Shown here piece by piece: positions 49,176 through 53,963 of a stretch of 64,000 nucleotides of DNA. Both the position numbers and the translations under genes were made by a program. Below the pieces are notes generated by a model. The model was not told the DNA's origin. It saw only the letters and a program-made list of their open reading frames with translations, and made no database searches. Within the stretch, counting starts at the first letter, position 1, and each line of letters starts with the position of its first letter. Source of the stretch: Deltaproteobacteria bacterium (GTDB lineage Bacteria; Desulfobacterota; Syntrophorhabdia; Syntrophorhabdales; JANXAF01); NCBI GenBank assembly GCA_026417175.1, contig JAOADT010000011.1, positions 2,214 to 66,213 of the forward strand, given 5' to 3'.

Positions 49176-50339
49176 GTGAGAAGCTTTAATGGAAAAATAA
49201 CAGTAATCTGCGGGGAATACTCTGGAGAAATTCATGCTGCAAATTTAATAAATCGCCTTTCAAAGTTGATTCGGCTGGAGTATCACGCTGTAGGTGGTAA
49301 TCTACTTGAAAAACAGGGAGCAAAATTGATTTACGATTACCGACTAATTTCTGTTACGGGACTAACAGAGGTACTCATAAAGTCTATTGACATCATAAAG
49401 GCATACCAAAAAGTAAAATACCATCTTGAAAAAGATGAGCCATCTCTTCTCATTCTTGTAGATTATCCAGGCTTTAACTTAAAGATAGCAAAGAAAGCAA
49501 AGGAAAGGGGGATACCAGTTGTATATTACATTCCACCTCAAGTGTGGGCTTGGGGTAAGAGGAGGATAAAATATATAAAGGCTTATGTTGACTTGGTTAT
49601 ATGTTTCTTACCTTTCGAGAAAAAAATATATGATTTTCACTCAATAAGAAACAAATTCGTAGGCCATCCATATGTAAAGACCGTCAAACCTCTTTACGAA
49701 AGGAATAGATTTTTTGAGGAATTTCGGGTACCACATGGGTGCTCTATTATTGCAATTTTACCTGGAAGCAGAGAAAATGAAGTAAAAAGGCACATGCCAG
49801 AACTATGTAAAGTGATGGAGAGAATTGAAGGTATGGTTGATAATCCTTTTTTTCTTATAGCTCAGGCACCCGGTATATCTACGGGGCAAATTGGGCCATA
49901 TCTCCGCTCAACTGATAACGTACGCATAGTAAAGGGTTTATCCCATGACGTGCTTTGTCATTCTGACTGTGCTATTTTGGCTTCAGGAAGTGCCACTCTC
50001 GAGGCGGCCATTTTGGGTACTCCATCTGTAGTTATTTATAAATTGTCTCCTCTTTCTTACCTTTTAGGAAAGTATTTAGTAAAAATTCCTAACATTAGCT
50101 TACCCAATATAATACTTGGAGAAAAGATCTTTGCTGAGTTTATTCAAAAACTAGATCCTGAGAGAATTGCGGTTGTGGTTAAGGATATGTTAAGAGATAA
50201 GAAAAGAAATATGAAGATAGTAAGTGCTAAGTTGATTGATCTGCTCGGTGGTCCAAGTGTCGACGCGTATGAAAATGCAGCAATAGAAGTACTTTATTTT
50301 TTGAGGGAAATCTATGGGTTTGTACCTGAGGCTGCTTAA
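49176..50339 (+). CDS. lpxB: Lipid-A-disaccharide synthase
   Basis: GEYSGE, VDYPGFN, YYIPPQVWAW, LPFE, VGHP, LPGSR..EV, SGSATLE. Confidence 0.95.
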   Translation: MRSFNGKITVICGEYSGEIHAANLINRLSKLIRLEYHAVGGNLLEKQGAKLIYDYRLISVTGLTEVLIKSIDIIKAYQKVKYHLEKDEPSLLILVDYPGFNLKIAKKAKERGIPVVYYIPPQVWAWGKRRIKYIKAYVDLVICFLPFEKKIYDFHSIRNKFVGHPYVKTVKPLYERNRFFEEFRVPHGCSIIAILPGSRENEVKRHMPELCKVMERIEGMVDNPFFLIAQAPGISTGQIGPYLRSTDNVRIVKGLSHDVLCHSDCAILASGSATLEAAILGTPSVVIYKLSPLSYLLGKYLVKIPNISLPNIILGEKIFAEFIQKLDPERIAVVVKDMLRDKKRNMKIVSAKLIDLLGGPSVDAYENAAIEVLYFLREIYGFVPEAA

Positions 50340-52083
50340 ATATGTAAAACCTTACTGGATCAAGTTGTTGTTTGCGATGATATTTATGTCTCTAGTCTCT
50401 GCTTCAAATGGGCTTACTGCCTTTATCGTAAAACCAGTCTTGGATAAGATATTTTTTGAAAAGAATGCCAGTATGCTGTTTATCATACCATTCGGGATTA
50501 TACTTTTGTACATTGCCAAAGGCATATGTGATTACTTTCAAGGTTATCTTATGGGATATGTGGGACAGAGAGTGGTGACAGATATAAGAAATATACTTTT
50601 CAGGGCGGTACAGAGACAACCGCTTTCATTTTTTGACAAGACGCCAACAGGCATAAGCATCTCGAGGGTTATAAACGACGTTAACCTCATACAGAACACG
50701 GTTTCTGATACACTAACAGCTGTGCTAAAAGACGCTCTCACAGTTATTGCGCTCGTATTTGTTGTTTTTTATCGAGACTGGAAGCTTGCCATAATATCAT
50801 TCTTAATACTTCCTTTTGCTATATATCCAATAGTCAACTTCGGACGACGTTTAAGGAAAGTAAGTATTAAAACGCAGAAGTCCGTAGCGAGATTGACAGC
50901 TTTCCTTCATGAAAATATTACGGGACAAAGGATAATAAAGGCCTTTTGTATGGAACCATACGAGGAAAGACGATTTGAAGAAGAAAATGACAATCTTTTT
51001 CAAACTGTTATGAAGAGATACAGAATAAGAGCTCTTTCTTCTCCAATTATGGAGGCTCTTGGGGGTATTGCGGTTGCTGTAATAATATGGTATGGCGGAA
51101 ACCAAGTGATTTCTGGAAAGTCTACCCCTGGCAATTTCTTTTCTTTTATCGCTGCTTTGCTTATGCTTTATGAACCTATAAAAAGGCTAAACAAAGAGAA
51201 TCATAACATCCAACAGGGACTGGCAGCAACCCAGAGAGTTTTCGAGATTATAGACAGGGAACCCGAAATAAAAGAAAAAAGAGATGCAATAGATCTTAAG
51301 AATGTACAAGGGGATATCGAGTTTGTAAATGTCTCTTTCAAATACGAAGATAGATATGTTCTCAAAAATATAAATTTAAAAATAAGAAAAAAAGAGGTTG
51401 TTGCTATTGTTGGAGAAAGTGGCGTAGGCAAAACCACGCTTGTTAATCTTATACCTAGGTTCTACGATGTGACGGAAGGTTCCGTAAAGATTGACGGTAT
51501 AGATATACGAGATGTGAAGCTAAAGTCTTTAAGGGAAAATGTGGCTATAGTTACCCAAGATGTAATCCTCTTTAACGATTCCATTATAAATAACGTGACC
51601 TTTGGTCAAGAGATTGATCTTGAAAGAGTTAAATTGGCCATTTCTATGGCTCACGCAGATGAAGTGGTACGTAAGTTACCAAATGGGCTTCATACAAACA
51701 TCGGGGAGAAAGGAGTAAGATTGTCTGGGGGTGAGAAACAGAGAATTGCTATAGCAAGGGCCATATACAAGAACGCTCCAATTCTCATTCTCGATGAGGC
51801 AACCAGCTCTCTGGATTCTGCATCCGAACTTATGGTCCAGAAGGCGATCGAAAACCTAATCAGGGGAAGGACAACTATAATTATAGCTCATCGTCTATCC
51901 ACGATTATGGGGGCAGATAGAATAGTGGTTTTGGATAAAGGAAAGATAGTTCAAGAGGGAGACCATCAAACACTTGTCGAAGAAGAGGGTCCTTACAAGA
52001 GGCTTTTTGAATTGCAGTACAGAAAGAAACACAAAAAAGTTATTTCTTTTGAAAAGGCTTTAAAAAATGTGGAAAAGACTTAA
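50314..52083 (+). CDS. msbA: Lipid A export ABC transporter (MsbA-like)
   Basis: TM domain plus Walker A GESGVGKT, signature LSGGEKQR, ILDEATS, IAHRLST; located in the lpx operon. Confidence 0.92.
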   Translation: MGLYLRLLKYVKPYWIKLLFAMIFMSLVSASNGLTAFIVKPVLDKIFFEKNASMLFIIPFGIILLYIAKGICDYFQGYLMGYVGQRVVTDIRNILFRAVQRQPLSFFDKTPTGISISRVINDVNLIQNTVSDTLTAVLKDALTVIALVFVVFYRDWKLAIISFLILPFAIYPIVNFGRRLRKVSIKTQKSVARLTAFLHENITGQRIIKAFCMEPYEERRFEEENDNLFQTVMKRYRIRALSSPIMEALGGIAVAVIIWYGGNQVISGKSTPGNFFSFIAALLMLYEPIKRLNKENHNIQQGLAATQRVFEIIDREPEIKEKRDAIDLKNVQGDIEFVNVSFKYEDRYVLKNINLKIRKKEVVAIVGESGVGKTTLVNLIPRFYDVTEGSVKIDGIDIRDVKLKSLRENVAIVTQDVILFNDSIINNVTFGQEIDLERVKLAISMAHADEVVRKLPNGLHTNIGEKGVRLSGGEKQRIAIARAIYKNAPILILDEATSSLDSASELMVQKAIENLIRGRTTIIIAHRLSTIMGADRIVVLDKGKIVQEGDHQTLVEEEGPYKRLFELQYRKKHKKVISFEKALKNVEKT

Positions 52084-52728
52084 AACATTCCTCATGATTA
52101 CAATTTTTCCTCCTTTGGTATATCTCTTTCTTTGGTTTCTTAGAATCACATCCTGCGTTGTGCATATTAACAGGGAGTGCGCTCTTGAAGCATGGTCGAA
52201 AGGTAATCTCATAGTTTGTTTCTGGCATGGGAGACTTCTTATGATGCCTTTTGCTTATGAGAGAAAAAAAGGAAAAGTCATAATAAGTAGACACAGGGAC
52301 GGAGAGTTCATAGCCAGGGTAATGAGATACTTTAATCTAGCTTCTATTAGGGGATCGTACAGAAAAGGAGGGATAGGAACTTCAAGGGAGGTGTTAAGAA
52401 GTCTTAAGGAAGGATATGATATTGCTATTACGCCAGATGGTCCTAAAGGGCCTAGGTATTTGGTAAAGAAAGGGGTTTTGGAGATAGCGAGACTTTCTGG
52501 GAGACCTATAATTCCTGTTTCTTACAGTGCAAGTAAAAAAAAAGACTTAACTCTTGGGATGAATTTATCATTCCACTTCCTTTTTCCAAAATTTTTTTCG
52601 TCTGGGGTAATCCTATAATAGTTCAATCGGACGAAAAAGATGAAGAGATAGAAAAGAAAAGATTAGCCCTGGAGAAGGCTCTCATTGAACTTACAGAAAA
52701 AGCGGATGGTTTTGCATGTGGAAAATAG
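52067..52728 (+). CDS. DUF374 (LpxJ-like) acyltransferase, interrupted by a -1 frame change at A9 (52535-52543)
   Basis: Frame 0 has FWHGRL, ISRHRDGE, IRGS, TPDGPKGP and stops at 52618. The family-like C-terminus (RLNSWDEFIIPLPFSK..WGNPI..LEKAL) continues in the -1 frame to TAG 52728, overlapping the waaA start. The joined product is about 220 aa. Confidence 0.85.
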
Positions 52729-53963
52729 TTTACAGATTTTTTTCTTACTTGTTTCTTATTCCGGGAATTCTTTTTTTACACAGGAACGAAAAGACCAAAG
52801 GTACTATCAGAGAAAGACTAATACCACCTCAGAAATCTCAAACAGAAAATCAAACTGTATGGATTCATGCGGCATCAATAGGAGAAGCAATCATAGCGAT
52901 AGCCATAAAAGAGTTTCTTACATCTAAAAAGAAACTATCGTTTGTGGTCACCACAAACACGATTTACGCAAAAGATCTTCTCAAGAGAGAGCTTGGAGAA
53001 GAAGTTCAGATTTGCTATGCCCCACTTGATGTTAAGTTTTCTGTTAGATCCTTTATGAGAGGACACAATTTCAGAGCACTTTTATTAATTGAAACCGAAT
53101 TGTGGCCAAATATGATTTGGGAAGCAAAAAGAACTGGGGTCCCAGTTCTCATTTTAAACGGAAGGATTTCAGATAGAACATTTCCCATATACAGAAAGAT
53201 CTCTTTTTTCATGAAAGACGTGTTATCAAGTATAGACTTCGTACTTGCTCAATCAGAGTTACACGCCGAAAGATTCCGATATCTCGGGGTCAAGAAAGAT
53301 AGGATCCGGGTTATGGGAAATATAAAGTACCTTAGACGAATTGAGATTACAGATGATATGAAAGATAAGAAGAATATAGTCACCTTCGGAAGCGTAAGAT
53401 CTGGTGAAAAACGAACTGTTTTGGAAGTGATCGAGCAAGTTAAAGTAAACTATCCATATATTACTTTTTTTGTAGCTCCAAGGGAATTCTCGGTTATTTC
53501 GGAGCTAGCAAAATCACTGGGAGAACGTTTTCGTTTGGGTTATTTTTCTGCAATAAAAGAGAAAAGCCTTGATCCTTTGAATTTTGACGTGGTTATAGTT
53601 GACACGGTTGGAGATTTGCCACAAATCTACCGGAAAAGTCTTTTAGCCTTTGTGGGTGGAAGCCTTATTCCGCATGGAGGACATAATATTTTGGAGCCCT
53701 TGTTTTTTGGCACGCCCGTTCTGTTTGGTCCATATATAGAAAATTTTAAAGATTTGTCAGAAGATATTATGGCCAATGGTGCAGGAGCAATGGTAAAGGA
53801 TCAAGAAGAGCTAAGAAAGATGGTGGAAATGATCATCACTGATGACTCCTTAAGAAAGTCTATGGCTAATAATGGGTGGACTCTTATAAAGAAAAAAAAA
53901 GATGAGATAGAAAAAGAATTGGAAGTGATTTTTGAATTCATAAATAAGGGAGGAATGTTCTAG
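52716..53963 (+). CDS. waaA: 3-deoxy-D-manno-octulosonic acid transferase
   Basis: WIHAASIGE, PLD, ETELWPN, NGRIS, GNIKY, DTVGDL, FVGGSL..GGHNILEP. Confidence 0.95.
   Translation: MWKIVYRFFSYLFLIPGILFLHRNEKTKGTIRERLIPPQKSQTENQTVWIHAASIGEAIIAIAIKEFLTSKKKLSFVVTTNTIYAKDLLKRELGEEVQICYAPLDVKFSVRSFMRGHNFRALLLIETELWPNMIWEAKRTGVPVLILNGRISDRTFPIYRKISFFMKDVLSSIDFVLAQSELHAERFRYLGVKKDRIRVMGNIKYLRRIEITDDMKDKKNIVTFGSVRSGEKRTVLEVIEQVKVNYPYITFFVAPREFSVISELAKSLGERFRLGYFSAIKEKSLDPLNFDVVIVDTVGDLPQIYRKSLLAFVGGSLIPHGGHNILEPLFFGTPVLFGPYIENFKDLSEDIMANGAGAMVKDQEELRKMVEMIITDDSLRKSMANNGWTLIKKKKDEIEKELEVIFEFINKGGMF

Follow-up and report, generated by a model that had tools for sequence, protein, structure and literature searches.

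A recurrent -1 break at a nine-adenine run in lpxJ-type lipid A acyltransferase genes of Syntrophorhabdales and other bacteria, probably bridged by recoding

Gene content of the locus and identity of the split gene

The 64,000-nucleotide stretch of DNA analyzed in this study (referred to as the window; contig JAOADT010000011.1 of assembly GCA_026417175.1) contains the genes lpxB, an msbA-like exporter gene, a DUF374 gene, and waaA in this order, and all of their ends overlap (Table 1). Since lpxB and the msbA-like gene share 26 nt (50314-50339), and the stop of the exporter gene overlaps the start of the DUF374 gene, designated lpxJ in the following, by 17 nt (52067-52083), the entire gene row looks translationally coupled. 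The lpxJ open reading frame (52067..52618) comprises 183 aa; it reads ...PVSYSASKKK over a run of nine adenines (A9) and then continues with 24 unrecognisable codons. The -1 frame, entered at the last A of the run (52543), reads RLNSWDEF...GFACGK over 61 codons up to a stop at 52728, by which it overlaps the waaA ATG by 13 nt. All of these features, i.e., the A9 run, the 24-aa tail in frame 0, the 61-codon -1 frame, and the overlap with waaA, had been listed in an earlier note on this DNA and were found to be correct.

Table 1. Features of the lpxJ region; positions are counted from the first nucleotide of the window.
Feature	Position	Strand	Remarks
lpxB (lipid A disaccharide synthase)	49176..50339	+	First gene of the cluster examined; PF02684, E 4.8e-87
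msbA-like ABC exporter	50314..52083	+	ABC_membrane and ABC_tran domains
lpxJ-like (DUF374) 5' part, frame 0	52067..52543	+	159 codons, end Ser-Lys-Lys-Lys; PF04028
A9 run, recoding site	52535..52543	+	AAA AAA AAA = KKK; flanked by T and G
lpxJ 3' part, -1 frame	52543..52728	+	61 codons and stop; SWD..PLPFS motif and C-terminal helix
Frame-0 tail of lpxJ	52544..52618	+	24 codons and stop; made without a slip; not conserved
Local 8-bp hairpin	52555..52575	+	11 nt 3' of the A9 run; not a conserved element
waaA (Kdo transferase)	52716..53963	+	PF04413, E 8e-53

In the 5' part of lpxJ, a match to the DUF374 model (PF04028) of 89 bits was obtained for residues 64-130 (gathering cut-off 26.8; E 1.5e-25), and the gene is the single DUF374 member in the genome (2.15 Mb, 97 contigs). 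No NCBIfam model matched either of the lpxJ parts or two in-frame homologues. For LpxJ of Rickettsia typhi, each of the substitutions W60A, H61A, D86A, D132A, W172A, and D173A was reported to abolish activity (PMC6148475). Equivalents of W60/H61/D86/D132 are located in the frame-0 part of the window gene (W53-H54, D78, and D124; alignment A1), and the Trp-Asp of the SWD motif in the -1-frame part corresponds to W172/D173 (W165-D166 of alignment A3). All six essential residues were invariant in 38 in-frame homologues.

From the alignment of these homologues, a structure model was built for the in-frame homologue L061 (221 aa) rather than for the window's own protein (pLDDT 89.5, pTM 0.86). Past the site corresponding to the A9 run, the modelled protein features core strands (residues 169-171 and 176-181) as well as a long terminal helix (residues 193-218). 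Foldseek matches of the model included 5kym (E 4e-7), 5kn7, and 5f2z, and similarity to PlsC, LpxM, and PatA extended along about 207 columns. Within the order, in-frame proteins have a length of 221 aa, in agreement with the 159 and 61 codons of the two parts in the window. The previous identification as DUF374/LpxJ is thus upheld by the PF04028 match, the essential residues, and the PlsC/PatA/LpxM-like fold; judged by its sequence, the gene is of the LpxJ/DUF374 type and predicted to encode a lipid A late acyltransferase. Going by the lpxB-msbA-lpxJ-waaA context only, its product may be responsible for 3' secondary acylation of lipid A precursors. As the 3' part contains the essential Trp-Asp and, according to the model, supplies core strands and the terminal helix, it is necessary for the enzyme.

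Two separate open frames are present at the locus, and split enzymes exist, so the 3' part could be imagined as a separate 61-aa protein that joins the 5' part non-covalently. The SWD motif begins 8 nt after the run, and no ATG, GTG, or TTG is located in between, which precludes translation of the 3' part on its own. Moreover, no ORF of at least 30 aa with a common start was found in the -1 frame between 52543 and 52728, the same being true at the junctions of the relatives, and the junction lies inside the beta-sheet region of the L061 model. An arrangement of two associating proteins is therefore regarded as extremely improbable.

Recurrence of the break, selection on both parts, and distribution

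In a first search, the frame-0 part was compared with 40 relatives from the same order, and both parts were placed by tblastn at the resulting 29 loci. At 22 of the 29 loci, the frames of the 5' and 3' parts differed, always by the same -1 offset, and all 22 carried an A9 run at the junction. Added to these were 40 regions from 401 sampled genomes of the phylum and 73 loci from species-representative genomes. Loci were assigned to a frame class according to how many nucleotides separate the third Lys codon from the TGG of the SWD motif. Eight of the 143 loci (L050, L111, L113, L115, L116, L120, L124, and L131) were left out, the match of the 5' part having ended early, and the remaining 135 loci corresponded to 107 distinct sequences, with the window counted among the shifted ones.

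In total, 65 of the 107 distinct loci were shifted by -1 and 42 were in frame, so that a recurrence of the break at the KKK poly-A in relatives, as raised in the earlier note, was confirmed. The relatives are non-independent samples. Recurrence at one codon in so many distinct loci indicates that the break is more than chance. Each of the shifted loci (65/65) featured nine or ten consecutive A's, followed after exactly 11 nt by the TGG, none of the 65 examined being devoid of the run, and all nine A columns were invariant in the 64 aligned shifted loci. Between KKK and TGG, in-frame loci have 12 nt. At least nine A's were kept in 8 of the 42 in-frame loci and were absent from 34, and those in-frame relatives keeping A9 possess one extra base farther downstream. 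The first Lys position is often occupied by Arg in in-frame relatives (AGA, AGG, CGC), and the sequence AGA-AAA-AAA was seen in none of the 65 shifted loci. Four loci from Alphaproteobacteria and Rickettsiales (L114, L117-L119) were in frame and had no A-run. As far as can be judged from these sequences, the A-run is kept only where it is needed for recoding.

A single locus, originating from a Syntrophorhabdaceae MAG (L061:1975-1990), combined A10 in the DNA with an open frame. It reads KKKTFKSWD, i.e., the exact product predicted from a slipped transcript, and its sister L013 is shifted. In the phylum sample, the DUF374 match was also located inside open frames of 620-880 aa in several families (e.g., G053, G130, G147, G060, and G168), which suggests fusions with a neighbouring lipid A gene.

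Selection was evaluated by pairwise dN/dS values (Nei-Gojobori) for 63 shifted loci. For the 5' part, the median was 0.215; for the 3' part, it was 0.254 when read in the -1 frame, and reading the same DNA in frame 0 gave 1.15. The 3' part was 58 codons long in 53 of the 63 loci, and the length of the frame-0 tail ranged between 1 and 40 codons. In addition, the 13-nt overlap between lpxJ and waaA was identical in 52 of the 65 shifted loci. On the evidence of the substitution ratios, both lpxJ parts are under purifying selection.

These results also bear on the question of whether the break is an artefact, namely a homopolymer miscall (the true sequence being A10), or a mark of a recently dead gene. 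Homopolymers are error-prone on some sequencing platforms, and further indels in lpxJ besides the A9 junction were noticed in several long-read MAGs of the set (L088, L050/L111, and L116). In L088, a second indel restores frame 0, and reading continues into waaA. These extra indels look like assembly errors, and the corresponding loci were kept out of the selection analysis. However, identical run length and spacing were observed in 65 distinct loci from many projects, including the one-contig genome G383, and in-frame relatives, too, have A9 together with one base farther downstream. Decay is opposed by the dN/dS of 0.25 for the 3' part.

The remaining homopolymers of the assembly point in the same direction. 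The earlier remark that no run in the window is longer than A9 holds, but the run is not unique there, since seven A9 runs are located at about 13441, 19528, 29557, 52535, 53892, 58065, and 60979. Genome-wide, the numbers of A/T runs were 4940 (length 6), 1935 (7), 835 (8), 99 (9), and 3 (10), and no run longer than 10 was found in the genome. The lengths end abruptly, with counts dropping sharply at 9. Sixty-six of the 102 runs of at least nine are located within ORFs that are open on both sides, one of them near the 3' end of waaA (KKKK). The DUF374 run is the sole one of the 102 that breaks a gene internally; five other break-like runs turned out to be gene ends or starts. Sixty-six runs of this kind accordingly keep the frame in the very same assembly, and three runs of 10 were assembled. 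Furthermore, an independently built contig of sequencing run X1 matched 52067-52800 with 0 differences at a depth of 13.5; as X1 perhaps stems from the window's own source sample, this match excludes an assembler artefact only. Sequencing run X2 covered only 52067-52432, which is short of the A9 run. Sequencing error had formerly been named as the main alternative, a rank it does not retain in view of the 65 loci, the 66 frame-keeping runs, and the X1 contig, and an artefact or a dead gene is considered highly improbable.

To place the shifted genes phylogenetically, a maximum-likelihood gene tree of 102 rows was calculated with the Lys codons and the linker excluded; L040, L088, L121, L122, and L123 were left out as too short. 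The Syntrophorhabdales genes clustered together (69 rows, support 97), and 53 of these rows were shifted. The cluster includes a subclade of 14 rows (support 96) that is entirely in frame, five members having A9 and nine having AAG, AGG, or AGA codons in place of AAA. Six other families of the phylum made up a second group (13 rows, support 98), in which ten members, among them the one-contig genome G383, were shifted and three were in frame. The two shifted clades were not sisters in the gene tree, with weak support. The minimum number of state changes was 7 on 102 rows and 11 on 186 rows, both on unrooted trees and with the rows added for the larger tree chosen for being shifted.

A strict 21-base motif of the shifted form was detected in 22 of the 401 genomes of the phylum sample, all belonging to the two shifted groups, and the reversed motif used as a control had no match in the 401 genomes. 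The same motif was present in at least 120 metagenome stretches. Among the matches listed, both homologues occupied the expected frames (0 for the 5' part, -1 for the 3' part) in 117 of 120, and contig ends interrupted the remaining three; 106 of these listed matches were distinct, and ten were identical to loci already in the set. The metagenome matches were picked by a pattern requiring A9 and are thus uninformative on the link between run and shift, but they show the spread of the form and the intactness of the -1 frame. Also among the matches listed were extra groups of 16, 8, and 6 members, all of them shifted, whose nearest relatives in the set are in-frame genes with 46-57% identity. 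The nearest ESM Atlas clusters were DUF374 proteins of 167-177 aa, mostly labelled Nitrospirota, Pseudomonadota, Acidobacteriota, or Thermodesulfobacteriota, and these labels are to be taken as leads only. Going by motif and reading frames, the split form occurs throughout the Syntrophorhabdales as well as in another clade of this phylum, and at least 120 metagenome contigs carry it.

The codon 5' of the A9 run ends in T throughout the Syntrophorhabdales (AGT, GGT, CGT, TCT, GCT, TGT, GAT, and ACT; 52532-52534 in the window), with a varying amino acid, and it mostly ends in C where the run has decayed. A T in this position forms, together with the first two A's, a TAA triplet of the -1 frame. 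In the metagenome clades, the codon ends in C or G (CGC, CTC, AGG, CGG, and ACC), which rules out the T as part of a general signal.

Route of the frame change

Since selection maintains this split in many bacteria, close relatives and distant ones alike, the split is, as far as sequence comparison can tell, a decoding device and neither an error nor a dead gene. The idea that the full-length enzyme is made solely via slippage or frameshifting at A9, likewise put forward in the earlier note, has gained strong comparative backing from the recurrence in 65/107 loci, the link to the A-run, and the dN/dS values. It appears rather probable that lpxJ encodes a working enzyme whose full-length 220-aa product needs a -1 change at A9, most likely by polymerase slippage. 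The analysis demonstrates the break, its conservation, the selection acting on both parts, and the need for the 3' part; the step at which the frame changes, its efficiency, and any regulatory use are points that we infer.

In the proposed mechanism, RNA polymerase would slip on the nine template T's and insert one extra A in a fraction of the transcripts. By standard translation, the A10 mRNA would yield ...Ser-Lys-Lys-Lys-Arg-Leu-Asn-Ser-Trp-Asp... up to the stop overlapping waaA, and the unslipped mRNA would give a truncated protein without the essential Trp-Asp that is probably inactive. A -1 slip of the ribosome on A_AAA_AAA would lead to the identical protein and may contribute. The site unites features looked for in slippage sites, namely an A/T run of at least nine at the frame junction, conservation of the run against synonymous codons, and selection on both parts. 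Runs of nine A/T were reported to cause efficient polymerase slippage in bacteria (PMC5009743), and, in another study, an E. coli reporter with 11, 9, and 7 A's reached 63, 40, and 10%, respectively (PMC3711429). The polymerase is favoured on the basis of these published data, the nine A's that are always kept, and the absence of a conserved RNA element from the shifted loci.

The 66 in-gene runs of at least nine A/T are awkward in this respect, as they fit poorly with high-frequency polymerase slippage on every A9. They count against the polymerase, and the sharp fall in run counts at nine has to be set against that.

Alternatively, the unedited A9 mRNA could be decoded by a programmed -1 ribosomal frameshift on the last seven A's (A_AAA_AAA), with tRNA-Lys re-pairing. 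A_AAA_AAA is a recognised -1 slippery heptamer, and it was found in the correct zero frame in every shifted locus. In the Syntrophorhabdales, the T before the run and the resulting TAA in the -1 frame confine productive -1 entry to the heptamer. A genome with 66 in-frame runs of at least nine may also indicate that its polymerase is not very slippery. Finally, a moderately stable hairpin is located 11 nt downstream of the run in the window. Its folding agrees with the former description (-8.6 kcal/mol, z -2.38; 3 of 200 shuffled sequences folded equally well), but its suggested role as a stimulator did not hold, because it is not conserved: on average, 5.17 of 7 pairs were formed in shifted loci vs. 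4.82 of 7 in in-frame loci without the A-run. This near-equal pairing is explained by a core that consists of fixed Trp-Asp and Pro codons, and the hairpin is a by-product of coding that is local to the window. Stimulators are usually spaced 5-9 nt from the slippery site, and the 11-12 nt to the local hairpin exceed this distance.

Neither a downstream structure nor an upstream element proved to be conserved in the 64 shifted loci, the search for a Shine-Dalgarno-like element being done by eye. RNAalifold revealed no conserved structure for the 64 shifted sequences (-0.42 kcal/mol). Two helices named by hand were 67% paired in these loci with covariation no better than in slid controls, and the constant pairs of helix 2 were the coding-fixed GG/CC only. 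An upstream mini-hairpin over the Pro-Val...Tyr-Gly codons (columns 40-54) formed 3.22 of 4 pairs in shifted loci vs. 2.15 of 4 in in-frame loci without the A-run. As a signal it was rejected, since it is missing in the second clade (Phe for Tyr), its covariation is no better than that of slid controls, and phylogeny confounds the comparison. Furthermore, seven A's would do for the ribosome, Arg is tolerated in the first position by in-frame relatives, and AGA-AAA-AAA would leave the heptamer intact, yet 65 of 65 shifted loci keep at least nine A's; the reported drop in efficiency from 40% with nine to 10% with seven A's (PMC3711429) also speaks against the ribosomal route. Frameshifting by the ribosome as the main route, the chief competitor of polymerase slippage, is accordingly possible but unlikely.

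A further proposal was ON/OFF phase variation, in which replication alters the run length and cells switch between A10 (ON) and A9 (OFF). A homopolymer in an LPS gene is the classic setting for such switching, and L061 is in frame with A10 and sister to a shifted locus. Mixed lengths would be expected, but the 65 distinct loci, which stem from a range of species and studies, show one OFF register and one spacing, with A10 in frame at L061 alone. Long-term purifying selection on the -1 frame requires regular expression, and no indel was present in the X1 contig, although contigs hide minor variants. The proposal was thus not sustained, and phase variation is considered very unlikely.

Assuming slippage, the simplest origin would be a one-base loss beside a pre-existing slippery KKK run, rescue by slippage, and subsequent lock-in. 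Reversion would then consist of a base gained downstream, after which the run decays, as in the in-frame subclade. More speculatively, and in our view doubtful, the site could act as a regulatory valve instead of being an accident that is tolerated, with the slipped share following polymerase speed, temperature, or nucleotide pools and setting both LpxJ acylation and the supply of ribosomes to waaA. If so, the slipped share would determine the extent of secondary acylation of lipid A (a tuning of acylation had been envisaged in the earlier note) and, through the conserved 13-nt overlap, the number of ribosomes passed to waaA. Selection would have maintained this valve in several phyla of bacteria, and the A-run would have decayed after the occasional reversion.

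Comparison with known recoding systems

To our knowledge, few non-mobile bacterial genes need recoding, the textbook cases being prfB, dnaX, and a handful more. In lpxJ, a core gene of envelope biosynthesis would need recoding at one orthologous codon in an entire order, a second clade, and metagenome lineages. Annotation pipelines label such genes as truncated or as pseudogenes (compare the 167-177-aa DUF374 clusters of the ESM Atlas), and, as a consequence, these bacteria seem to lack part of the lipid A pathway. The reversions with later decay of the A-run within the set also make the site a natural, phylogenetically replicated system for studying why a frameshift is maintained.

No description of frameshifting or slippage in DUF374/LpxJ or in Syntrophorhabdus was found in the literature. 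The main text of the GeneTack survey, to which the search was confined, names no DUF374 cluster; it does include a cluster 'Tetraacyldisaccharide kinase/acyltransferase', named as a gene junction (PMC3711429). Likewise, the searched text of the 2016 review contains no mention of the lpxJ site (PMC5009743). Programmed slippage at poly-A runs is already known, and the lpxJ case was not found described.

As a protein, the product resembles LpxJ of Rickettsia typhi, Helicobacter pylori, and Campylobacter jejuni in its Pfam family, the six essential residues, and the PlsC/PatA/LpxM-like fold, and the gene likewise resides within a lipid A/Kdo cluster. From this group, two Helicobacter loci were inspected; these loci, L115 and L120, which are outside the frame classification as their match stopped short, have no long A-run near the site.

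Regarding the proposed decoding, the dnaX gene of Thermus thermophilus is similar in that a chromosomal nine-base run receives polymerase-added A's, giving two products with different C-termini, as described in PMC5009743 and PMC3711429; for lpxJ, the same would apply by analogy. In dnaX, however, the unslipped product is full-length tau and the slipped product is the shorter gamma, and both are used. The unslipped product of lpxJ, in contrast, is without essential residues and ends in a non-conserved tail, and only the slipped product looks functional.

The magnesium chelatase recoding cluster (GeneTack, Antonov et al. 2013) also features two adjacent ORFs, a -1 shift, and poly-A runs of 7-11, with an efficiency that rises with run length from 10% to 63% in E. 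coli (PMC3711429). It differs in that it belongs to a separate gene family and comprises 23 genes from six genera. Like lpxJ, this cluster has fused in-frame homologues elsewhere.

In insect endosymbionts, genes broken at long A runs still give protein via slipped transcripts. The rescue of frameshifts in poly(A) tracts by polymerase infidelity in these organisms is also mentioned in PMC5009743. The endosymbiont breaks are scattered over decaying, very AT-rich genomes, whereas the lpxJ break is found at one orthologous codon throughout an order, in a second clade, and in metagenome lineages of free-living bacteria.
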